A DNA stretch of 20,000 bases from an uncultured virus (IMG/VR IMGVR_UViG_3300025168_000065) (IMGVR_UViG_3300025168_000065), one strand, 5' to 3'. Shown: positions 3,231-12,642, counted from the stretch's first letter. Notes: generated by a model not told the origin, from the letters alone. Numbers and translations are program-made.

Positions 3231-3488
3231 TTACACAACTACAACAACATCCCTCTCCTGAATAACAGCGTAGGGATTGTCCTCTATTAACATCTCATGA
3301 CCTGCAGCTCCGTCATAGTAAATAATATCTCCAGAGTTAATTACACTCACATCAGTACCAGCCTTTACAACCTCACCCTTCTTGTACCTAAACCCAGAAG
3401 CATCTTGAGCAGATAATAAAAGACCTGACTCAGTTTTTAACTCTTCTTTTATTTTTTTTATTACTATGTACTTTCCTATTGGCTTCAT
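3231..3488 (-). CDS. groES: Co-chaperonin GroES (Cpn10)
   Basis: MKPIGKYIVIK...KTESGLLL...GEVVKAG...GDIIYY...VIQERDVV; adjacent to groEL. Confidence 0.93.
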   Translation of the reverse strand: MKPIGKYIVIKKIKEELKTESGLLLSAQDASGFRYKKGEVVKAGTDVSVINSGDIIYYDGAAGHEMLIEDNPYAVIQERDVVVVV

Positions 3489-3553
3489 ATTGTTTTATGT
3501 TTTCAATTAATTTTTTATCAGAGTCCTCCTTTAAAAATAATGATCTTATAAGC

Positions 3554-5149
3554 TTAATCATCTTTCCCTGCTCTGGCGTGCGTTATAATTGCATTGGTAG
3601 TAAGGATAGTCGTAGCTACACTTATTGCATTAGAGAGCGCCTGACAGGTAACCTTAGCTGGATCAATAACCCCCATCTTAAACATATCTCCCCACTCCCC
3701 TGTCTTTACATTCAATCCTTCATTATTAGCATCATACATAAGCTTTTCGTTATCATCTTCAGATAACTCTAAGCCTGCATTAGAATATATTTGCAACAAA
3801 GGCGCTCGAAGTGCTGTCGCTAAAATCTTACCTGCAATCTTATAGTTCATATCTTCAGCGAATGTAGCTTTTTTATAAAGCGCTACACCTCCCCCTGCTA
3901 CTATCCCTTCCTGTAGTGCGGACCGCACTGCACAGACAGAGTCATCGACTCTGTCGAATTTTTCTTTTTGCTCAATATCAGAGGTAGCTCCAACGTAAAT
4001 ACATCCTATACCACCAACCAAAGATGCGATACGCTCGTTCACAAAGTCTCTCTCGTGCTTAGCAGTTAGTGTTTCTTGCTGTAGTCTAAGCTCTGTCACC
4101 CTGTTCATAGTCTCCTTAGTAATCTCGCCGTTCTTAATTATTATGGCATTGTCTTTCCCTACAATAATTTTATCTGCATACCCTAAGTCCTCAGGTCTAA
4201 TCAATGATAAATCATCTCCAGTCTTTTCTGAAAAGTATTTAGCACCTACTGAGAACGCAATGTCCTGCATTAACTCATGAGACTTGTAGCCGAATGATGG
4301 CACCATGATATTACAAAACTTTAAACCATTACGCTGAACGTTAGCCGCCATAGTATTAATAACATTCTGAGAGCAGTTCCCTATGATAAGAAGCTTCTCT
4401 CCAGCATTAATAATTGGTTTAAGTACATTCTCAATCTGAAGTATGTTGGTTATCTCTGTATCACACAGCAAAACCTTAACACCCTCCATAATACACTCGT
4501 CCTTTCTCTGGTCATTAATAAACATCGTAGAGGTATAACCCCTATCAACCTTTATCCCGTTAGTAACCTCAGAATATGTTTTGTCAGTTTGAGATCTCTC
4601 AACCGTTACAATACCATCCCTACCAACTTCCTTGTAGGCCTCAGCTATAATCTTACCGATCTCTGGATCATTATTAGCAGAGATAGTCGCAATATCCTCC
4701 AGCATATCATCAGTAACTGGGATTGCTCTTTCTTTAATCTCGTCTAAAATAGCTTCTCCCTGCCATCTAATATCTCTAACTATCTCTATGGTATTATCAC
4801 CCTCCTTAATATACTTCTGACCCGCCTTTACTAAAGCCTCCGTCAAAACAATAGCCGTAGTTGTTCCATCACCAGCTACATTAGCCGTCTTCTCCGAAGC
4901 TTGCTTCATCATCCTAACCGCTAAGTTCTCTACAGGATCAATAAGAAATATACTCTTAGCCACAGTAACACCATCCTTAGTCACTGTTAACCCCTGAGTA
5001 TGCTGGGTCGATTCAATTAAAACAGTCTGACCCTGAGGCCCCAATGTTGACTTAACCGCATTAGATATTTTTGAGATTCCCGATATTAGTTTTGTTCTTG
5101 CCTGCTCATCAAACGACAGGTCTTTTGGAATGTATCCTTGTTCTTGCAT
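3554..5149 (-). CDS. groEL: Chaperonin GroEL (Cpn60), phage-encoded
   Basis: TLGPQG, TKDGVTVAK, AGDGTTTA, TISANND, EGIVAGGG and GVIDPAKV motifs; no GGM tail. Confidence 0.97.
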   Translation of the reverse strand: MQEQGYIPKDLSFDEQARTKLISGISKISNAVKSTLGPQGQTVLIESTQHTQGLTVTKDGVTVAKSIFLIDPVENLAVRMMKQASEKTANVAGDGTTTAIVLTEALVKAGQKYIKEGDNTIEIVRDIRWQGEAILDEIKERAIPVTDDMLEDIATISANNDPEIGKIIAEAYKEVGRDGIVTVERSQTDKTYSEVTNGIKVDRGYTSTMFINDQRKDECIMEGVKVLLCDTEITNILQIENVLKPIINAGEKLLIIGNCSQNVINTMAANVQRNGLKFCNIMVPSFGYKSHELMQDIAFSVGAKYFSEKTGDDLSLIRPEDLGYADKIIVGKDNAIIIKNGEITKETMNRVTELRLQQETLTAKHERDFVNERIASLVGGIGCIYVGATSDIEQKEKFDRVDDSVCAVRSALQEGIVAGGGVALYKKATFAEDMNYKIAGKILATALRAPLLQIYSNAGLELSEDDNEKLMYDANNEGLNVKTGEWGDMFKMGVIDPAKVTCQALSNAISVATTILTTNAIITHARAGKDD

Positions 5150-5208: not shown

Positions 5209-5392
5209 TATGACAACATTTTAAGTTTTTACTTTCTATTTGTTATATATATATTTATTATTATTATTATTATTTATTATTATATATTTTAGACTTAAAG
5301 TCGTCATCTTGTCATAAATAAATATAATATATTGAAAATCAATTAGTTAGGCCCATGACGACTTTTTTTAAAGTCATCATAACTATGACGAG
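5209..5392. repeat. ATGAC(G/A)A repeat cluster around an AT-rich spacer (origin-like locus A)
   Basis: tatgacaac 5209-5217; aagtcgtcatcttgtcata 5298-5316; atgacgactt 5355-5364; aaagtcatcat 5370-5380; tatgacgag 5384-5392; almost pure A/T spacer 5218-5297. Confidence 0.7.
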
Positions 5393-5407
5393 TCTTGAAA
5401 TATTATT

Positions 5408-5691: not shown

Positions 5692-6128
5692 TAAAATTTT
5701 TTTAGATGTCTCGGGGTTGAGGGTTATTATACGTTATACGCACACACATTGCCTCAGGAAATAGATTTCAAAAAGCACCCCCCCCATGACGATTTGGAAA
5801 TTTTCACCCCAACTTTTTGACGTTTTTGTATGAGCTTCCCGTATGCCGTAGGGATTCCCCTTGTACACTACCTCTATCCCTACCTTACACTCCTGTTGTA
5901 CTCTTAATGTCTACGATTACACCAATACCTTCCCCTCTTTGCAAGGGATAAAAGAGAATATATCTTTAGTTAGATAAAGAGAGATGTCTCTTAATCCCAT
6001 CCCCATCCCCAAAATACCTAAACATATCAACAAATCAATAGATCATTTCGAAAGCACGTAAGATGCTGATAATCAGTTAGTTTCATTTCATTTCATTTAT
6101 GGAACAAGATATTCTTTTGAATTTATAG

Positions 6129-6158
6129 TTGACAATCCAATTATTTATAGTATATTTG
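6129..6158 (+). promoter_or_regulatory. Promoter of the early-type gene cluster (TTG-N19-TATATTTG)
   Basis: TTG at 6129-6131 and TATATTTG at 6151-6158; Bacteroidota -33/-7 arrangement. Confidence 0.75.
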
Positions 6159-6200
6159 TACAGAATTTAAACAATTAATAACTTAAAAGACACACACAAA

Positions 6201-6347
6201 ATGGAACAAAGAGTAGAGTACATTAGACAAGAAATCAGAGTATTGAATCAAGCATTAACATTAGTAAATGAGATAGATTCTCTTTACATTAAAGAAATGA
6301 TAAAAGAAAAGGAAAAATACATTCGCCTGATGAGAATGCAAGACTAA
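6201..6347 (+). CDS. Small helical hypothetical protein, 48 aa
   Basis: Not in track. MEQRVEYIRQEIRVLNQALTLVNEIDSLYIKEMIKEKEKYIRLMRMQD; preceded by the ACACACACAAA leader. Confidence 0.75.
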   Translation: MEQRVEYIRQEIRVLNQALTLVNEIDSLYIKEMIKEKEKYIRLMRMQD

Positions 6348-6356
6348 ACCTCACCA

Positions 6357-6419
6357 ACTACCGAATGGCTCGTACTGAATTAAGTACGGGCTTTTCGTAG
6401 TAGAGGGATATTCCTCGCA
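6357..6419 (+). ncRNA. Structured intergenic RNA motif, copy 1 (long interrupted stem plus GAGG/CCUC hairpin)
   Basis: actac-c-gaa/ttcgtagt outer stem; gctcgtact/agtacgggc inner stem; gagg-gatatt-cctc hairpin; paralog at 7993-8053. Confidence 0.65.
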
Positions 6420-6438
6420 AGATTAAAACACACACAAA

Positions 6439-6921
6439 ATGAATAAGCAACAAGAAGAATTAGCAATGAGATTAGATTTAAAAACACCATACAAATGGGT
6501 AATGGATAATCTAATTCCAAACCAATCATCTGATGTACAAGAGAGATGGAAGATAATGAGTAAAATGGTAGAATTGAATCAGGAATGGGTAGAGGAAGTA
6601 GTAAACAATGGAGATTTAAAGTTATCTGAAGTATTGCATGACTTTAGAGGTATCTACTCAGAGGATGAGCATTTCGTACCAAGAATATCTACTGAAGTTT
6701 CTGATGATAGGGTTAACGGATACACTAACCTTCAAACCTACCGATTATGTTTAGTATTAGATAACGAGCAAGTAGTACCTAATCCCTTAACAAGATTCTT
6801 AGAGTTAGTACAAGAGAATGAGTTTGAATCTAATGATATTGATATTATCAATTGGAATGAGGTAATTGAGAGATACTCTGATAGCATTCTTTTAGAGCAT
6901 TCGTTTTACGCAAACAAATAA
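6439..6921 (+). CDS. Hypothetical early protein; C-terminal half has an NG(Y/W)TNxxT...LxLDNE motif seen in small phage proteins
   Basis: ORF track; ACACACACAAA leader. Confidence 0.75.
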   Translation: MNKQQEELAMRLDLKTPYKWVMDNLIPNQSSDVQERWKIMSKMVELNQEWVEEVVNNGDLKLSEVLHDFRGIYSEDEHFVPRISTEVSDDRVNGYTNLQTYRLCLVLDNEQVVPNPLTRFLELVQENEFESNDIDIINWNEVIERYSDSILLEHSFYANK

Positions 6922-6975
6922 GATACTCTGATGAGGACTCAGTGTCCGAAACACTACGCAAGTAGTGTCAGTATC
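6922..6975 (+). ncRNA. Hammerhead ribozyme, type I (HH1); predicted cleavage after C6969
   Basis: GAUACU-CUGAUGA-GGAC(UCAGU)GUCC-GAAA-CACUAC(GCAA)GUAGUG-UC-AGUAUC: complete core and three perfect stems. Confidence 0.95.
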
Positions 6976-7001
6976 ATAAGATACCAATTAACACACACAC
7001 A

Positions 7002-7211
7002 ATGACAACAAGCGAAAAAGCAGTAGAGGTACTTAAAACCAAGTACGGCATAGATGCAAGAATCTATAAGGACAATGTATACTTAGCAGTATGGAATGAT
7101 GACTTATCCGACACCATAGATGTTGAAGCGTCTAAAGGACAAGTAGAAGATTGGGCATTAGAACATGACAAAGAATGTACTTGGTATGGAGAATATAAAG
7201 CAAAGCAATAG
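7002..7211 (+). CDS. Small acidic hypothetical protein bracketed by two hammerheads
   Basis: ORF track; ACACACACACA leader. Confidence 0.8.
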   Translation: MTTSEKAVEVLKTKYGIDARIYKDNVYLAVWNDDLSDTIDVEASKGQVEDWALEHDKECTWYGEYKAKQ

Positions 7212-7212
7212 A

Positions 7213-7269
7213 GATACTCTGATGATGGATTTAATATCCGAAACTACTCTTAATTGAGTAGTCAGTATC
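7213..7269 (+). ncRNA. Hammerhead ribozyme, type I (HH2, with 1-nt U insertion after CUGAUGA); predicted cleavage after C7263
   Basis: GAUACU-CUGAUGA-U-GGAU(UUAAU)AUCC-GAAA-CUACUC(UUAAUU)GAGUAG-UC-AGUAUC; stems II and III differ from HH1 but keep pairing. Confidence 0.9.
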
Positions 7270-7296
7270 ATAAGATACCAATTTAAATAACACACA

Positions 7297-7521
7297 ATGT
7301 ATAAAACAATGGTTAAAGATTCCCAAGATTTTTGGGGAAAAGTAGCGTCCGAAAATGGATGGAGTATGAATGGTAGAGGATGTACAATATGGATTAATAA
7401 AGACAATGAAGTATTAGATAGTATCTACAACAAAGAAGATAATAAAGAATCTTATATTGTACAAGTAGATGTAGATTATGAAGGTTTCTATGAGAATGAG
7501 GTATTAATTAAAACAATATAG
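7297..7521 (+). CDS. Small hypothetical protein
   Basis: ORF track; AACACACA leader. Confidence 0.8.
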   Translation: MYKTMVKDSQDFWGKVASENGWSMNGRGCTIWINKDNEVLDSIYNKEDNKESYIVQVDVDYEGFYENEVLIKTI

Positions 7522-7523
7522 AT

Positions 7524-7682
7524 ATGAAAGATATATTAGGATTACCGATAAAATGGTTAGCAAGATACTACTACACAATATTGATAGTATGGTTAACATT
7601 AACGATGAGTAGCTGTGGATTAAGATTTGGAGACTACCATGCATGGGAAAAAGATTATAAACAAAAATGTATAAGAAAATGA
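7524..7682 (+). CDS. Small putative lipoprotein, 52 aa
   Basis: Not in track. MKDILGLPIKWLARYYYTILIVWLTLTMSSCGLRFGDYHAWEKDYKQKCIRK; hydrophobic stretch ending in lipobox-like MSS-C. Confidence 0.65.
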   Translation: MKDILGLPIKWLARYYYTILIVWLTLTMSSCGLRFGDYHAWEKDYKQKCIRK

Positions 7683-7981
7683 TGAGATTAAAATTAAGTA
7701 TGATAACATTTAATATGTTAGAGAGTCATTTCAGTAATGACTACGGGAAAAAGAATGGTAATGGTGTAGCTATGCCACTTGGAGATGATAGCTTACATAT
7801 GATTCATAATGAAGGTGCATTAGAGAATTACAAAGAGACGATAACAAAAAAGTTTGGAGATGTTATGGTGTTATTACAGGATCCTGACGAGGTATGGTTT
7901 AACAAGGTAAAGATTGATGACGGAGTATTTCAAGATTATCATAGAAAATATATGCAGAAAGCAATGAATAATAGGAATTAA
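7679..7981 (+). CDS. Hypothetical protein
   Basis: ORF track 7667..7981; start uncertain (7679 by ATGA overlap, or 7700). Confidence 0.7.
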   Translation: MMRLKLSMITFNMLESHFSNDYGKKNGNGVAMPLGDDSLHMIHNEGALENYKETITKKFGDVMVLLQDPDEVWFNKVKIDDGVFQDYHRKYMQKAMNNRN

Positions 7982-7992
7982 CGTGTGTGTTT

Positions 7993-8053
7993 CCATCATC
8001 TAACCTCACTACGAAAGTAGTGGGGATTTGGTGGTAGAGGGATGTTCCTCACA
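7993..8053 (+). ncRNA. Structured intergenic RNA motif, copy 2
   Basis: ccatca/tggtgg outer stem; cctcactac-GAAA-gtagtgggg inner stem; gagg-gatgtt-cctc hairpin; 18/20 identity with 6400-6419. Confidence 0.65.
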
Positions 8054-8071
8054 CAATTAAATTAAATTATT

Positions 8072-8563
8072 ATGAGTAGAAAAGAATTAGAAGCAAAGTT
8101 TATGGAGTTTCCTAAACTGGTAGTAGCAAAGTATGATGTAGGAGAATACATCCAAGACCAAATTAAATTCTTCCAAGATGACAAGCAAGAGTTTCTTGTA
8201 AGTAAACTATGGGATGAAGAGAGAGATGTTGAAAGTGTAACTGATAAAGAAATAGAAGAACACTTCTATGATGATGTTTGGATTAGTGTTCAATGTTATG
8301 AAGACTTTGAGTATGACTTGACTGAAGAGTTTAAAAAACACATAGGTAAAGAAGTTTATGTAGAGGGAAGAAATATGGGATGGAGAAATAGAAGTGGACA
8401 TAAATGTTTCACTATAAATAAACCATTAGACTTGTTTAAAGAAATAGCACCTGAATGTGAACTGACTTATGAAATGGAGAAAGTAACCGATAAAGAGTAT
8501 GAGGTAAGAATTGCACACCACGACTCACCAATGGGAGAATATTATAACTTAAAAATTAAATAG
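8072..8563 (+). CDS. Acidic hypothetical protein (GRNMGWRNRSG, HHDSPMGE motifs)
   Basis: ORF track; TTAAATTATT leader. Confidence 0.8.
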   Translation: MSRKELEAKFMEFPKLVVAKYDVGEYIQDQIKFFQDDKQEFLVSKLWDEERDVESVTDKEIEEHFYDDVWISVQCYEDFEYDLTEEFKKHIGKEVYVEGRNMGWRNRSGHKCFTINKPLDLFKEIAPECELTYEMEKVTDKEYEVRIAHHDSPMGEYYNLKIK

Positions 8564-8565
8564 AT

Positions 8566-8811
8566 ATGAATTGGAAAGAAATGAAAAGTAAGATACTATC
8601 AAATAGTATATTATTAGAGAAACTAAAAAAGTTTCCTAACAGAAAGTTTATTCAGAAGTGTCAGCAAAAATTAGATGCATACAAGAAACCTAAACCAAAT
8701 CCTTTAGATTGGTTTAATCATTTTGTAGATTACATTGAAAATACAGATAGCAATCTTTATAATCAAGCGTGTGAGTATGCCGACAATAAAGAAAAGCAAG
8801 AAAATGAATAG
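8566..8811 (+). CDS. Hypothetical protein
   Basis: ORF track; packed against upstream gene. Confidence 0.7.
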   Translation: MNWKEMKSKILSNSILLEKLKKFPNRKFIQKCQQKLDAYKKPKPNPLDWFNHFVDYIENTDSNLYNQACEYADNKEKQENE

Positions 8812-9211
8812 AGAATTAACATACAATAAGTGGATAAAGTATATCCATGATTATCAATTAAATAAAAATAAAATTATGAAAAAAGATCAAGCGTTAAAAA
8901 AAATCAGTAATATGTTGGGAGACAAACATATACATATATCAGATGAGGTAAAAATAGATGATATAAAGGGAACAAAAGGGAAAGTATATGTAGATAATTC
9001 ATTGTTAATGGAATTAATAGATGAGATTGCTACTCAAATGACAGAAGAAAAATTTGGAGAATACTATCACAATACGGGATTTGATAATGTTAAAGATAGA
9101 ACGTACACTTTAACAGATGAAGCACAGGATTTTTACAATAAAAAGTATGATGAGGTAGAGGGTATGATAAATAACATTACTAACATATATTCAAATAATG
9201 ATGAGCGATAG
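8804..9211 (+). CDS. Hypothetical protein
   Basis: ORF track 8735..9211; ATG start more likely at 8804 or 8876. Confidence 0.7.
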   Translation: MNRELTYNKWIKYIHDYQLNKNKIMKKDQALKKISNMLGDKHIHISDEVKIDDIKGTKGKVYVDNSLLMELIDEIATQMTEEKFGEYYHNTGFDNVKDRTYTLTDEAQDFYNKKYDEVEGMINNITNIYSNNDER

Positions 9212-9277
9212 ATTAGAAAGTAGTTTTGCAGAAATAATAATAGTAATTTTAATAACATTAATAATTTTAATATCAAT

Positions 9278-9559
9278 ATGAAACAGACAAGCGAATTAAT
9301 TAAGGAAGTAGGAAGAGAGGTAGTAATGCTACTACTTGAAAAGAATAAAGCGTATGGAGACACTGCAAATGATCCTCCTAAAATATTTTCTAAACTATCA
9401 GCAAAAGAGGGAATACTTGCGAGGATAGATGACAAGTTAAGTAGGATTAAAACAAGTGGGTTAAACGATAAAACTGAGGATACAATGCTTGATTTAATTG
9501 GATACCTTATATTGTATAGAGTACAATGTAAGAAGGAAAATCCCCCAAATGGGCAGTAA
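9278..9559 (+). CDS. DUF1599 / nucleotide-modification-associated domain 1 protein
   Basis: KNKAYGD...GILARIDDKLSRI...EDTMLDLIGYLIL pattern. Confidence 0.8.
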   Translation: MKQTSELIKEVGREVVMLLLEKNKAYGDTANDPPKIFSKLSAKEGILARIDDKLSRIKTSGLNDKTEDTMLDLIGYLILYRVQCKKENPPNGQ

Positions 9560-9656
9560 TTCCCCAAAATGGGGAAAGAAAGAAATAAAAATAAGTTAAA
9601 CATAATTTTGCTATTAATTGAAAAAGAATTATATTAGCAACCTAATCAAATTAAAT

Positions 9657-9950
9657 ATGAAAAAAGAAATATTTGACTCCTATGCTGAGTCAATAGCAAA
9701 GCAATTCCACCTTAGTTTAGACCAGATGTTTGATAAATCTAAGCGTAGAGATATTGTAGATGCAAGACAAATGCTTTACTACTTATGTATGGAAAGACCA
9801 ATTAGAATATCATACATCCAGAGGTTTATGAATGAGCAAGGTTTAGATGTTGCACATTCAACTATTATACATGGCTACAACAGGGCTAAAGGTATGGTAG
9901 ATAAAGATCCAGACTTTAAGAATGTAGTAAATAAACTACAAAATGTATAG
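9657..9950 (+). CDS. DnaA C-terminal (domain IV)-like HTH DNA-binding protein
   Basis: KSKRRDIVDARQMLYYL...HSTIIHG; ATG at 9657. Confidence 0.8.
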   Translation: MKKEIFDSYAESIAKQFHLSLDQMFDKSKRRDIVDARQMLYYLCMERPIRISYIQRFMNEQGLDVAHSTIIHGYNRAKGMVDKDPDFKNVVNKLQNV

Positions 9951-10359
9951 TATAGAGGAGGTTTATTCTCAATCCTTATCTGATGAGTTTTCTATACAAG
10001 TTAAAAAGCCGTTAGGATTTAGTGTAGTAAATTATGGAGTAAAGATTCAAAAGTTTAATAGTAAGATTGAATTATTAAACTGCTCTAAGAGTGGTAATTA
10101 TTTCCAAGAATTTACAGAGGATGAGTATAATTTATTTTATCAATACGGATGGAAGGAGGGAGGAGTAAGACTATCTTTATTAAATTACAAAAGAAAGTTA
10201 GATTTAGTAAACGATAAAATAAGGATAGAAATTAATACTCGAAAGAATAATAAACATATATCTAAATTAAAGTCAACAAGAGAAAATTTGTTGGTTAGAT
10301 ATGCAACCAGAAATAAACAATTAAATAAAATTAAATCAAATGAAAAAAAACATTTTTAA
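9943..10359 (+). CDS. Hypothetical protein
   Basis: ORF track; overlaps both neighbours slightly. Confidence 0.75.
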   Translation: MYSIEEVYSQSLSDEFSIQVKKPLGFSVVNYGVKIQKFNSKIELLNCSKSGNYFQEFTEDEYNLFYQYGWKEGGVRLSLLNYKRKLDLVNDKIRIEINTRKNNKHISKLKSTRENLLVRYATRNKQLNKIKSNEKKHF

Positions 10360-10942
10360 AGAATTATCTGCAGTTTCCATAAAAGGAAAGACAGATAAAA
10401 AAGGAAAGTTTGATTATATGTCTTGGGCTACGGCTTGGAGTATGATCAAGTCAGAGTACCCTAATGCACAGAGAAAAGTATATGAGTCAGAACACACTGG
10501 ATTAAACTTTTTTACTGATGGTAAGACTGCATATGTTAAGGTAGGAATTATAATTAATGATATGGAACATATTGATTACCTACCAGTTATGGATTTTAGA
10601 AATAATTCTATAACAATGGAGAAGTTAACATCTATGGATGTAAATACTGCAATACAAAGATCAACTGCTAAGGCAATTGCTATGCATGGATTAGGATTAT
10701 CATTATGGATTGGAGAGGATACAATTATAACTACTCCAGCATCTAATGTAGTTAGTAAGAATCCATTACCTACAAAGCAAAAGTCAGTACAATTAAATAT
10801 TGGAGATGCTAACTGGGATAGAGTTATGAAGTATATTGTAGATAATAAAGAGTTAGGATTACCTAAGATTGTTAAGGCACTTGAGACTAAGTATGATATT
10901 AAGGCAAGTGTTAAGAAAGAACTATCAAAGCTTATCAAGTAA
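10340..10942 (+). CDS. Sak / DUF1071 (Rad52-like) single-strand annealing protein
   Basis: YMSWATAW...LPVMDFRN...DVNTAIQRSTAKAIAMHGLGL. Confidence 0.88.
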   Translation: MKKNIFKELSAVSIKGKTDKKGKFDYMSWATAWSMIKSEYPNAQRKVYESEHTGLNFFTDGKTAYVKVGIIINDMEHIDYLPVMDFRNNSITMEKLTSMDVNTAIQRSTAKAIAMHGLGLSLWIGEDTIITTPASNVVSKNPLPTKQKSVQLNIGDANWDRVMKYIVDNKELGLPKIVKALETKYDIKASVKKELSKLIK

Positions 10943-11277
10943 TGGAAGACATTACTTTATACGATCTACTTAACTTAAAACTATCAAAGTTAACGTGGAC
11001 AGAAAAAATTCATGAGAGTAAAATTTCAAGTGAAGAAGGATTCTCTATAGAATTAGATTATTATAAAAATATTGGTAAGAATAAAGATAAAGACCAGTTA
11101 CTTGTAAATATTTACTATAAACACATAAACATAGGTGCATTTGGATCTATAGAAAAGGAAGAGTCGGACCAATTTGCTAAGTGGTTTATTGATCAATCTG
11201 AATTAATTGACAAGTCTGATGAGCAACATGAGAAATTTTTAGAGATTGAGGGTAAGGATAAATTTAAAAACTTATAG
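10942..11277 (+). CDS. Hypothetical protein inserted between SSAP and exonuclease
   Basis: ORF track; TAATG coupling. Confidence 0.75.
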   Translation: MEDITLYDLLNLKLSKLTWTEKIHESKISSEEGFSIELDYYKNIGKNKDKDQLLVNIYYKHINIGAFGSIEKEESDQFAKWFIDQSELIDKSDEQHEKFLEIEGKDKFKNL

Positions 11278-11278
11278 T

Positions 11279-12016
11279 ATGTATCAAATATTAGAAAAAT
11301 TAAAAGATGATAAGAATTATTATGGAGAGTTTGGTCAGCAGTATCTATCAAATTCTGATATAATAACTTTATTAAACGATCCTAAAGAATTTAGGAAGCC
11401 AAAGGAGGTAACAAAGGCAATGCTACTGGGGAGATATTTCCATACTGCTATGTTAGAGCCAGATAAGTTAGATTCTACTGAGTTTATAGATATAGATGTG
11501 TCAAGTAGGAATACTAAGAAGTATAAGGAAGAATTACTTATACAAAATAAAAGTATTATAATGCTTTCTAAGGAAAAGTCTGGTATTAATAATGCAATAT
11601 CTACTATGAAGAACAATTTAGAATTCTATGATGCTATTTATGATTTAGATAATACATATGAAGTACCTGCGGTACATGAAGTTATGGGTATTATGTGGAA
11701 GGGTAAGGCAGATATTGTAGCTAAGGATATGCTAATAGATCTTAAGACTACCTCAAACATCAAAGACTTTAAGTATAGCGCACGAAAATATAATTATGAT
11801 AGTCAGGCATACCTATACCAACAATTCTTCAACAAACCTCTTGTATTCTACGTTGTAGACAAGTTAACGTTGGAGTTAGGAGTCTATCATCCATCACAAA
11901 AGTTTTTGGAGTATGGAAAAGAGAAAGTAGAGCGAGCAATCGAAGTGTATAACAAATTTTATAGTAAAGATGCTAAAGAAGATATTGAAACGTACGTCAT
12001 TAAAGAGGTACTTTAA
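11279..12016 (+). CDS. PD-(D/E)XK exonuclease, RecE/DUF3799-like
   Basis: LSNSDI...MLLGRYFHTAMLEP...KGKADI...IDLKTT...YDSQAYLY; ATG at 11279. Confidence 0.85.
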   Translation: MYQILEKLKDDKNYYGEFGQQYLSNSDIITLLNDPKEFRKPKEVTKAMLLGRYFHTAMLEPDKLDSTEFIDIDVSSRNTKKYKEELLIQNKSIIMLSKEKSGINNAISTMKNNLEFYDAIYDLDNTYEVPAVHEVMGIMWKGKADIVAKDMLIDLKTTSNIKDFKYSARKYNYDSQAYLYQQFFNKPLVFYVVDKLTLELGVYHPSQKFLEYGKEKVERAIEVYNKFYSKDAKEDIETYVIKEVL

Positions 12017-12131
12017 AAAGAAAAGTGTGGTGTGGTTGCAAATTCCAACCGACCTCAACACACAAGCTGATAGAGATAATCTCATGGAAGCTACAATGAA
12101 TCAGTTGGAAAAAATTATTTATAAAAATTAA
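11970..12131 (+). CDS. Small hypothetical protein, 53 aa
   Basis: Not in track. MLKKILKRTSLKRYFKKKSVVWLQIPTDLNTQADRDNLMEATMNQLEKIIYKN fills the gap and stops 3 nt before the next ATG. Confidence 0.55.
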   Translation: MLKKILKRTSLKRYFKKKSVVWLQIPTDLNTQADRDNLMEATMNQLEKIIYKN

Positions 12132-12134
12132 ATT

Positions 12135-12392
12135 ATGGCAGAAGAAAAAATTTATGTAGGAAAAGGGACAACTAAATTTGATGGAAATCAAATTGCTTGT
12201 ACCGTATGTTTAACAGACTTACCTCAAGAACACATGTTTGAGTACAACGGAAAGAAGTACATCAAGTTAATTGTACAAGAGAAAAAGTCTGTAGATGAGT
12301 ATGGAAAATCTCATTTTGTTGCGGTTGACACATGGAAACCAGAACCAAAGAAAGAAACTGCACCAGCAGTGGAAGAAGATCTACCTTTCTAA
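12135..12392 (+). CDS. Small single-stranded DNA-binding protein (Bacteroidota-phage type)
   Basis: Acidic C-terminal tip EEDLPF; located next to SSAP and exonuclease. Confidence 0.7.
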   Translation: MAEEKIYVGKGTTKFDGNQIACTVCLTDLPQEHMFEYNGKKYIKLIVQEKKSVDEYGKSHFVAVDTWKPEPKKETAPAVEEDLPF

Positions 12393-12414
12393 TAAAGGTA
12401 AGGTTATGAAGTAG

Positions 12415-12443
12415 AAGAGGGACTTATTGTCCCTTTTCTTTTC
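12415..12443 (+). terminator. Intrinsic terminator
   Basis: AGGGAC-TTATT-GTCCCT followed by TTTCTTTTC. Confidence 0.75.
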
Positions 12444-12450
12444 TCTTATA

Positions 12451-12625
12451 TATGACGAGATGACGACTTGGTCCTAACTTTTTAGCACTATATAGTTTTT
12501 TATATATAATCTTTATTTATTTATATATATTCTATATATTTTCTTATCATCTTGTCATAAAAAAAGAATATATAAGTAGTAGTTAGTAGAAAAAGTAAAA
12601 AATAACTTGTCATAAAGTTATCATA
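12451..12625. repeat. ATGAC(G/A)A repeat cluster around an AT-rich spacer (origin-like locus B)
   Basis: tatgacgagatgacgactt 12451-12469; ttatcatcttgtcata 12544-12559; cttgtcataaagttatcata 12606-12625; directly upstream of the primase-helicase. Confidence 0.7.
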
Positions 12626-12642
12626 AATTAAAATAAAATAAA

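Follow-up and report, generated by a model that had tools for sequence, protein, structure and literature searches.

An unnamed folded RNA lies between the cistrons of early operons in marine Flavobacteria-type phages and is distributed patchily among relatives. It is of a known kind, a cis-acting intercistronic hairpin of phage early operons, in a well-defined form that was not annotated before. Two copies occur in the window, which here means the whole 20,000-nucleotide stretch of DNA from an uncultured virus (IMG/VR IMGVR_UViG_3300025168_000065) that was analyzed, and the two-hairpin form seen there belongs, as a subtype, to a far larger family in phages. Judged from sequence, the element more probably serves as a leaky stop or pause signal, or marks the early transcript for processing, than represents a new ribozyme. 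The best reading appears, tentatively, to be a leaky terminator or pause site that governs elongation of the transcript, and an attenuator and an RNase III-type site remain the two best candidate readings, close to each other.

Gene expression in Bacteroidota and their phages is poorly understood, the hosts having no Shine-Dalgarno pairing, unusual promoters and pause sites described only recently. A compact, widespread cis element (at least 127 IMG/VR loci) that is restricted to early operons and missing from annotation libraries offers a handle on how Bacteroidota phages punctuate and time their long early transcripts. Furthermore, the sharing of one slot, in one phage group, by hammerheads and an element that is not ribozyme-like bears on what phage hammerheads are for.

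Structure of the two copies

Two structured RNA copies, each with an outer stem, an internal loop and an inner stem followed by a conserved block, had been proposed from the sequence, and folding of the + strand bears this out. Copy 1 (6357..6416) reaches -29.6 kcal/mol (z -5.9) and copy 2 (7995..8050) -29.3 kcal/mol (z -3.5), a stability that none of 200 shuffles attained in either case. The minus-strand folds are weaker, at -25.5 (z -2.6) and -20.6 (z -1.8), respectively. Each copy consists of an outer stem P1, a small internal loop, an inner stem P2 of 9-10 bp, one unpaired A and a 5-bp stem P3. In the fold of copy 1, P1 pairs 6357-6365 with 6394-6401 and bulges one C, P2 pairs 6367-6376 with 6383-6392 in 10 bp around the loop GAAUUA (6377-6382), the U-run and the 3' strand of P1 together occupy 6393-6401, and the junction A at 6402 leads into P3 (6403-6407 with 6412-6416). 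Copy 2 is built likewise on the + strand: P1 pairs 7995-8000 with 8030-8035, the 3' strand being GGUGGU; the loop UAA follows at 8001-8003; P2 (8004-8012 with 8017-8025) has 9 bp and a GAAA loop; AUUU stands at 8026-8029 and the junction A at 8036; and P3 spans 8037-8050 (8037-8041 with 8046-8050). The P3 stem is GAGGG/UCCUC, 5 bp, in both.

The P2 sequences of the two copies are unlike and pairing is retained in both, so that the earlier impression of stems that differ in sequence yet still pair holds. The 18/20 identity claimed for the downstream block was likewise reproduced with the 20-mers GTAGAGGGATATTCCTCGCA (6400-6419) and GTAGAGGGATGTTCCTCACA (8034-8053). The 17-mer GTAGAGGGATRTTCCTC, with up to three mismatches, occurs twice in the window against 0.04 expected, a count reached in 0 of 200 shuffles, and a repeat search of the window joined the two copies into one repeat family with 80% identity across 40 nt.

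An optional outer helix, P0, encloses copy 2 in the MFE fold (7984..8055, + strand), where GUGUG after the stop codon pairs with CACAC after P3. The same pairing, AAUUGUGUG...CACACAAUU, was seen by eye in four further loci (L004, L009, L011, L014) and is absent from L013, L115 and copy 1. Four loci (L006, L009, L011 and L017, from G004, G009, G010 and G007) carry an extra perfect hairpin between the stop codon and P1, for example GAUAGGG UUGUG CCUAUC, which together with P0 would turn the element into a multi-branched structure.

Each copy sits in a gap between co-directional ORFs, on their sense strand: copy 1 between a stop codon at 6345-6347 and the ATG at 6439, and copy 2 between a stop codon at 7979-7981 and the ATG at 8072. 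From P3 to the ATG run a leader that is A/C-rich and predicted to be unstructured in the first case (6417..6438, + strand) and one that is A/U-rich in the second (8051..8071, + strand). The first 16-28 residues (MSRKELEAKFMEFP...) of the gene after copy 2 (8072-8563) reappear at the start of a different, 82-aa gene, located upstream of the motif in two relatives (L023 1236-1484, L030 808-1056). Such a shared N-terminal start of unlike genes near the motif is indicative of mosaic recombination in or close to the motif and its leader.

Conservation in the phage group of the window

A scan of IMG/VR with the 17-mer returned 10 loci, eight with the full hairpin and two chance matches, and searches with flanking proteins led to further variants that differ in P3. 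A covariance model built from 12 sequences (R1), which scores copies 1 and 2 at 71.8 and 75.1 bits, found 1-3 copies per record in the 10 records first collected. Among 50 further records sharing the primase, copies were found in six; among the 17 of these that are at least 90% complete, in two. When 22 sequences were aligned with the model, 90.4% of cells were paired, compared with 71.8% after shuffling (reached in 0 of 500) and 46-50% with the partners slid, in an alignment that is fitted to the model and biased towards it.

P2 is 100% paired in these 22 sequences, with both sides changed in six of its nine pairs, P3 is 95% paired, and P1 is 70% paired in an alignment with a register problem. 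Compensatory changes in P1 are visible by eye: the inner pair C-G has become G-C in several lineages and U-A in L014, and window copy 1 has U-A where its orthologue L016 has C-G. The versions of P3 are unrelated in sequence and 4 to 9 bp long (for example UAGGGGAC/GUUUCCUA and AGGAGUCAA/UUGAUUCCU), and P3 is missing in two members.

A wider family defined by one hairpin and its tail

The core of the wide family is a hairpin CCUC...GGGG, followed by WUUU and then SGUGGUA, with an upstream CACCA-like strand that can pair back onto the tail. The strict pattern CCUC-gap-GGGG-WUUU-SGUGGUA occurs at no fewer than 127 IMG/VR loci, against about 17 estimated by chance, and 73 of 80 among the matches listed have an R1 E of 0.01 or better. 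The matches listed comprise 68 unique sequences, 57 of which have at least six contiguous P2 pairs, the pattern forcing just four. RNAalifold predicted nine P2 pairs from 60 aligned sequences, with double changes in six. The stems covary, with double changes in 6/9 P2 pairs among the 22 as among the 60 sequences; a search for covariation in a covariance model from virome sequences had been proposed along with the sequence-only reading.

P2 measures 7-10 bp in the wide family and has a CCUC/GGGG base, which is G+C-rich and abuts WUUU in all 22 model-found members and in the 60-sequence alignment. The third P2 pair is U.G in 54 of the 60 sequences, and such conserved wobble pairs assign the structure to the sense RNA. 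In most members the A of GGUA lies 11 nt from the base of the hairpin, the unforced variants UUUUUGUGGUA and UAUUCGAGGUA included; variants found by the model alone (these two and UAUUGGUGGUA) retain both the 11-nt span and GUA. On the 3' side of the hairpin, conservation is linear and reads GGUGGUA followed by N-A-A-R (A at +2 in 53/60), an invariance of the tail that is partly built in, since most sequences were fished with the tail pattern. The only conserved unpaired positions are the U-run, itself paired in some members, and the UA junction; loops vary freely, and so does stem sequence between close relatives.

The most conserved part is not P3; it consists of the 3' half of P2 and the tail, GGGG-WUUU-SGUGGUA. 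A P3-like hairpin follows the core in 11 of 57 wide members and is absent from 46, and only one of the 57 has a hammerhead core in the 200 nt upstream, and one in the 250 nt downstream. P3 and nearby hammerheads are special to the phage group of the window. The motif is present as the sequence-only reading described it, but that reading missed that the two-hairpin form is a subtype. Pairing between the tail and the 14 nt that precede P2 amounts to at least five contiguous pairs in 88% of the wide set versus 54% in the local control, and to at least seven in 27% versus 9%.

The position of the element is regular on its upstream side. In 32 of the 39 wide members with a clear upstream ORF, 17-27 nt separate its stop codon from P2; an ORF start follows the motif in all 57, and the distance from GGUA to that start is 1-40 nt in 56. 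A position tied to the upstream stop and loose with respect to the next AUG argues against a fixed geometry of translation initiation. An unlikely possibility is that the element is an uncut translation insulator or enhancer, whose hairpins would shield the A-rich leader from base pairing with upstream coding sequence and thereby let non-Shine-Dalgarno ribosomes start independently on the next cistron. The ORF start that always stands behind the motif (57/57 wide members and all instances in the window's group) would suit it, as would leaders that are A/U/C-rich and predicted to be unstructured, and P0 would in several members couple the opening of the leader to upstream termination. However, the AUG may follow after anything from 1 to 40 nt, P0 is missing in L013, L115 and copy 1, and there are 1-2 copies per genome though many cistrons need initiation.

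Distribution in phages, hosts and RNA libraries

A covariance model of the core (R2), which gives the window copies 45.4 and 53.1 bits, was run on 16 fetched genomes of 940 kb in total. It returned 14 copies, all in the early regions of nine motif-bearing genomes with 1-2 each, and none elsewhere in those nine or in seven relatives negative with R1. The motif is followed by many different, unrelated genes. No partner protein emerged from 856 ORF clusters (ATG-started ORFs of at least 45 aa; blastp 1e-5, 50% coverage), the best of which is present in 4/9 motif-bearing versus 0/7 motif-lacking genomes. An operator bound by a host or phage RNA-binding regulator, which would repress or stabilize a set of early mRNAs, could account for the conserved hairpin base with its near-constant U.G wobble (54/60), for the conserved tail and for the many unrelated genes that follow; it is improbable, as no phage protein co-occurs with the motif and the loops, the usual site of recognition, vary freely.

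Host genomes yielded no real member. In host genome contigs, a 19-nt pattern gave 30 matches, about the estimated chance number, none of them real by the covariance model (best 22 bits). Across 151 Bacteroidota genomes R1 found 0 matches, and R2 found seven weak matches that are terminator look-alikes, two of them directly adjoined by a tRNA 3' end in reverse complement. In L340 and L342, which come from Bacteroidota genomes, UGGUGGUAC of the tail exactly reverse-complements GUACCACCA, the apparent 3' end of a tRNA-Phe gene with a GAA anticodon, read by eye, that adjoins a terminator hairpin; a tRNA-Phe 3' end beside a terminator hairpin explains such look-alike matches. A 15-nt tail pattern in 401 Bacteroidota genomes gave 18 matches versus 13 for a reversed control, at most two per genome and forming no arrays, with core-model scores at these loci of 24.9 bits at best versus 30-53 bits for real members.

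These searches also bear on another idea. RNA anti-CRISPRs are solitary mimics of CRISPR repeats carried by phages, and the element has a repeat-like size and shape, a hairpin with an 11-nt 3' handle, and is phage-borne, non-coding and patchy. That it is such a mimic is nevertheless the least credible of the readings considered: in the 401 sampled genomes the tail pattern forms no arrays and barely differs in number from the control (18 versus 13), the best core-model score there stays below the range of real members (24.9 versus 30-53 bits), and the stem sequence is free to vary between close relatives.

Among deposited phages, BLAST against GenBank gave no match to a 4-kb query and only A/T-rich chance matches to the 86-nt motif, and R2 found nothing in the GenBank relative MW202828 and 15.9 bits at most in the cultured Flavobacterium phage elemoE_10-3D. 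The motif is crossed by two RNA-library contigs: record 7 of X17 (7926-8085) bridges copy 2, and record 1 of X15 spans the motif of a relative. None of these contigs covers the hammerheads, and contigs cannot show RNA ends, so that they give a weak hint that an uncut, read-through form of copy 2 exists in some sample.

The early operon and its hammerheads

The source phage has a genome of about 60 kb. Its 800-aa primase/helicase has 427 relatives in IMG/VR; the closest deposited phages are an uncultured podovirus (66%) and Elemovirus Flavobacterium phages (43% across 284 aa), and the hosts named among the matches are Flavobacteriia. The early operon occupies the + strand from about 6160 to 12440, begins with small ORFs without a PHROG match, continues with recombination genes and is ended by a canonical terminator, a hairpin with a U-run, at 12413..12439 (+); the replication genes lie beyond. 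The Bacteroidota -7 promoter motif is TAnnTTTG, and the likely early promoter at 6129..6156 (+), about 200 nt upstream of copy 1, is the best promoter-like match (11/12), TTGACA-16-TATATT overlapping TAtaTTTG. Along the operon follow a 48-aa ORF, motif 1 directly after this first small ORF, an ORF, a hammerhead, an ORF, a second hammerhead, three ORFs, motif 2, an ORF and the remaining genes.

Several other features were noticed in the surroundings. Repeated short boxes (CTTGTCATAAA, GTCATC and ATGACGA/TCGTCAT) at 5246-5400 and 12489-12626 occupy two A/T-rich regions that precede the early operon and the primase operon and resemble the repeats of operator or promoter regions. GroES- and GroEL-like proteins (PHROG 3188 and 5725) are encoded at 3234-5149 on the minus strand. 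Upstream of the early promoter, about 350 nt at 5700-6060 (+) hold no convincing ORF and are C-rich beyond the norm for the genome, with runs such as CACCCCCCCC and CCCATCCCCATCCCC. At 9559-9657 (+), an intergenic 7-bp hairpin, UUCCCCA AAA UGGGGAA, comes right after a stop codon, has no U-run behind it and folds with z -2.3.

The two hammerheads, which are context elements outside the motif, are of type I and lie on the + strand at 6922..6975 (predicted cleavage after C6969) and 7213..7269 (predicted cleavage after C7263). Both read GAUACU / CUGAUGA / helix II / GAAAC / helix III / GUC / AGUAUC, and helices II and III covary across relatives. Neither was reported by the Rfam hammerhead models, and the RAGATH-1-hammerhead model matched hammerhead 2 alone (18.2 bits, E 3.5). 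After the predicted cut, the 3' strand of helix I and the bases that follow can form a small hairpin, GUAUC AUAA GAUAC. Both hammerheads come directly after stop codons, with leaders behind them that resemble those behind the motif, so that the two kinds of element occupy equivalent gaps in one operon, in agreement with the shared stop-to-leader slot noted at the outset.

Relatives carry 0-4 hammerheads in the early operon, as counted by a core parser that missed at least one (a hammerhead of G002 was found by reading). With M for the motif and HH for a hammerhead, the order is M-HH-HH-M in the window and in G006, M-HH-M in G023, M-HH-M-HH in G003, HH-M-HH-HH-HH-M in G002, HH-HH-HH-M-HH in G004, HH-HH-M in G005, HH-M-HH in G007 and HH-HH-M-M in G028; G008 has the motif only. 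In G002, one gap holds a hammerhead and the motif about 40 nt apart.

Post-transcriptional punctuation is a possible reading that ranks second. The P1-P2 hairpin, irregular, roughly 15-19 bp long and bulged by U-rich sequence on its 3' strand, may be cut by a host endonuclease of the RNase III type, one that is specific for double strands or guided by structure. P2 would then remain on the upstream mRNA as a 3' stabilizer, P3 would protect the downstream mRNA at its 5' end, and the element would be a protein-dependent counterpart of the hammerheads. Slot and leader type are those of the hammerheads in the window and in 9/10 early operons of the group. Moreover, pairing in P1, P2 and P3 survives changes in sequence, the bulge is asymmetric, and the 1-3 copies are confined to early ORFan clusters, like the early RNase III sites of T7. 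The distance from GGUA to the AUG, 34-36 nt in 9/22 sequences by script count and in two more by eye where the script chose a later ORF, is near the 32-33 nt from the hammerhead cut to the AUG. On the other hand, a double-strand RNase needs neither an abutting U-run nor a conserved tail of single-strand character, a hammerhead is nearby in only 1/57 of the wide family on each side and P3 present in only 11/57, the gap in G002 holds both elements together, and the two RNA-library contigs span the motif uncut, a weak hint. Compared with termination, RNase III-type cleavage explains P1, the bulge, P3 and the hammerhead slot better and the U-run and tail worse.

Known RNA classes and the ribozyme question

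That the element belongs to no assignable family, as first stated, agrees with Rfam: a scan of the whole window gave nothing for the motif, short-range scans gave no match on either copy at E up to 10, and 20 loci of the wide family gave none at E up to 0.5, in scans that barely saw the evident hammerheads (18.2 bits). Hammerheads have a core of CUGANGA and GAAA that joins three helices, with a UH cleavage site. The motif is not a hammerhead, as there is no CUGANGA within 6357-6419 or 7993-8053 and no Rfam hammerhead match on it, and the models for twister, twister-sister, pistol, hatchet, HDV-like and hairpin ribozymes gave no match, again in scans that barely saw hammerheads. No tRNA or tmRNA was found in a scan of the window. 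GGUGGUA has what we take to be a resemblance to the T-box core; a T-box leader, which has a Stem I with specifier loop and an antiterminator bulge UGGN, was rejected, with no Rfam T-box match and no room for Stem I. A host-type DNA promoter was rejected because the Bacteroidota -33/-7 spacing misfits; TAnnTTTG occurs within 230 nt upstream of the motif in 10/49 cases versus 4/49 downstream. A template-strand hairpin promoter of the N4 type was rejected too, for on that strand the conserved U.G pairs would turn into A.C mismatches. A coding explanation is contradicted by paired changes, length variation and stop codons. Likenesses to a Chi-like TGGTGG and to a complemented tRNA 3' end were also seen, and nothing else supports them.

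In a search of openly accessible main texts, the motif strings gave only unrelated primer and probe matches, and work on hammerheads, phages, RAGATH and new ribozyme classes did not describe the motif. The proposal of a novel ribozyme is weakened, and a new class of self-cleaving ribozyme now seems very improbable. Its appeal is that the element adjoins hammerheads in phage operons, as earlier classes did, and matches no known family. Known small ribozymes have helices joined by conserved, formally unpaired nucleotides that build the active site (PMC6765202). Against a ribozyme, the conserved core is one irregular hairpin and an 11-nt tail with few conserved unpaired nucleotides and an optional P3, the wide family no longer shows the link to hammerheads, G002 has a hammerhead and the motif in one gap, and RNA-library contigs span the motif, a weak point.

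A proposed control of transcript elongation

In the reading preferred here, the element would act in cis on the early polycistronic transcript during its synthesis. P2, the abutting 3-5 U and (G/C)GUGGUA would form a weak intrinsic terminator or a hairpin-stabilized pause, at a site just past the footprint of the ribosome finishing the upstream ORF. A fraction of RNA polymerases would stop or dwell there, setting polarity and timing for the downstream early genes, and the dwell could allow a host elongation factor to load. Polymerases that read through would transcribe the GGUGGUA tail, which could then pair with the upstream CACCA-like strand as P1 to give a long irregular hairpin, followed in the window's phage group by the P3 hairpin one nucleotide further on.

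Termination or pausing, like factor loading, is what we infer; the element's structure, conservation, position and distribution are observed. A G+C-based hairpin with a short U-run right behind it is what characterizes weak terminators and hairpin pauses, and linear conservation of the tail is expected if it is read as RNA:DNA hybrid or as non-template DNA. Also consistent with elongation control are the fixed 11-nt spacing, the small number of copies, the linear conservation and a placement just past the upstream stop codon, and the failure of any phage ORF cluster to track the motif fits action through the host machinery. Presumably there is also a match to the elemental pause consensus (G-10, Y-1, G+1). 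A precedent exists in the same phylum, since Bacteroides opsX combines a nascent-RNA pause hairpin with a downstream DNA element near the start codon, and its hairpin can extend towards the 3' end as an 'escape duplex' (PMC11685472).

Several observations speak against termination. Canonical terminators of the same phages carry 7-10 U, against 3-5 in the motif, which is thus probably not one of these, and the terminator scan of the window listed neither copy. P1 and P3 can form only after the polymerase has passed and would be superfluous for a pure terminator; P1 nevertheless shows compensatory changes in the window subfamily, its excess over the local control being modest in the wide family (88% versus 54%). 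Furthermore, no strong terminator that would call for antitermination was predicted by that scan inside the early operon downstream of the motif, and the likeness to ops is partial, the GC..GC stem of the non-template hairpin being lost.

A related and rather unlikely reading is that the element loads a factor that modifies RNA polymerase, in the style of HK022 put or of RfaH/UpxY ops, and that this loading would be renewed downstream of hammerheads, where self-cleavage severs the RNA tether. The window subtype has two stems with one unpaired base between them, resembling put, the tail is ops-like, the 1-2 copies per genome lie in early operons, and the order motif-HH-(HH)-motif recurs in the window, G006, G023, G003 and G002. 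Yet most of the family lacks P3, a hammerhead rather than the motif comes last in 3/9 operons, no internal terminators are predicted, the stem of the ops non-template hairpin is lost, and the element was not found in the sampled host genomes, where a host factor's own targets would be expected. By analogy, it is conceivable with low probability that the phage uses a device that reprograms host RNA polymerase, in which hairpin and tail would halt the enzyme and make it resistant to termination or coupled to the ribosome, alone or with a factor of the NusA/NusG type. Equally speculative is that this device would be the Bacteroidota-phage functional counterpart of HK022 put or opsX, reinstalled downstream of hammerhead cuts. 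If true, a polymerase-modifying site would be the first such phage element described in this phylum.

Comparison with known systems

Like the motif, the intrinsic terminators and attenuators found in early operons of phages have a G+C-based hairpin directly followed by U, placed between co-directional genes just past a stop codon. Canonical terminators of the same phages differ from it in carrying 7-10 U rather than 3-5, and the motif has a GGUGGUA tail that pairs back as P1 and, in the window subtype, a second hairpin.

The early RNase III sites of T7 are irregular double-stranded hairpins of about two helical turns with an asymmetric internal loop, located between early cistrons in a few copies related by descent. 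The motif is likewise an irregular intercistronic hairpin in a few related copies, with P1 and P2 giving 14-19 bp and a 3' bulge. However, its stem is shorter in many members (5 + 9 bp), and it adds a U-run and a conserved tail; it is a candidate site for such cleavage. HK022 put consists of two stem-loops separated by a single base, both of them required, occurs in two copies per genome in early transcripts and acts in cis. Two stem-loops with one unpaired base are found in the window subtype only, and the second stem is absent in 46/57 wide members.

Hammerhead cassettes flank genes in phage and prophage operons (PMC3088659). These cassettes and RAGATH-type candidates resemble the motif of this phage group in intercistronic slot and leader type, and are interleaved with it in one operon, but the motif has no hammerhead core and the association is gone in the wider family.

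In ops and opsX a nascent-RNA hairpin is combined with a conserved linear element near the start codon, in opsX within the same host phylum and with a non-template DNA element that recruits UpxY (PMC11685472). Such sites have a cognate specialized NusG paralogue. The motif GTGGTAGA agrees with E. coli ops GCGGTAGC in 6/8 positions, and the eighth base of the ops-like tail varies (G 20, A 17, T 14, C 9; n=60). The non-template hairpin, GCGGTAGC in E. coli or YGCGNAGCR in Bacteroides, is not matched by the motif, which loses the outer G-C and inner C-G pairs of the GCG..AGC stem. Unlike opsX, the motif is intercistronic rather than in the first leader of an operon, and it was not found in the sampled Bacteroidota genomes. 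As in opsX (PMC11685472), the hairpin of the motif can extend towards the 3' end, and the upstream pause hairpin of ops and opsX has its equivalent in P2, with covariation.
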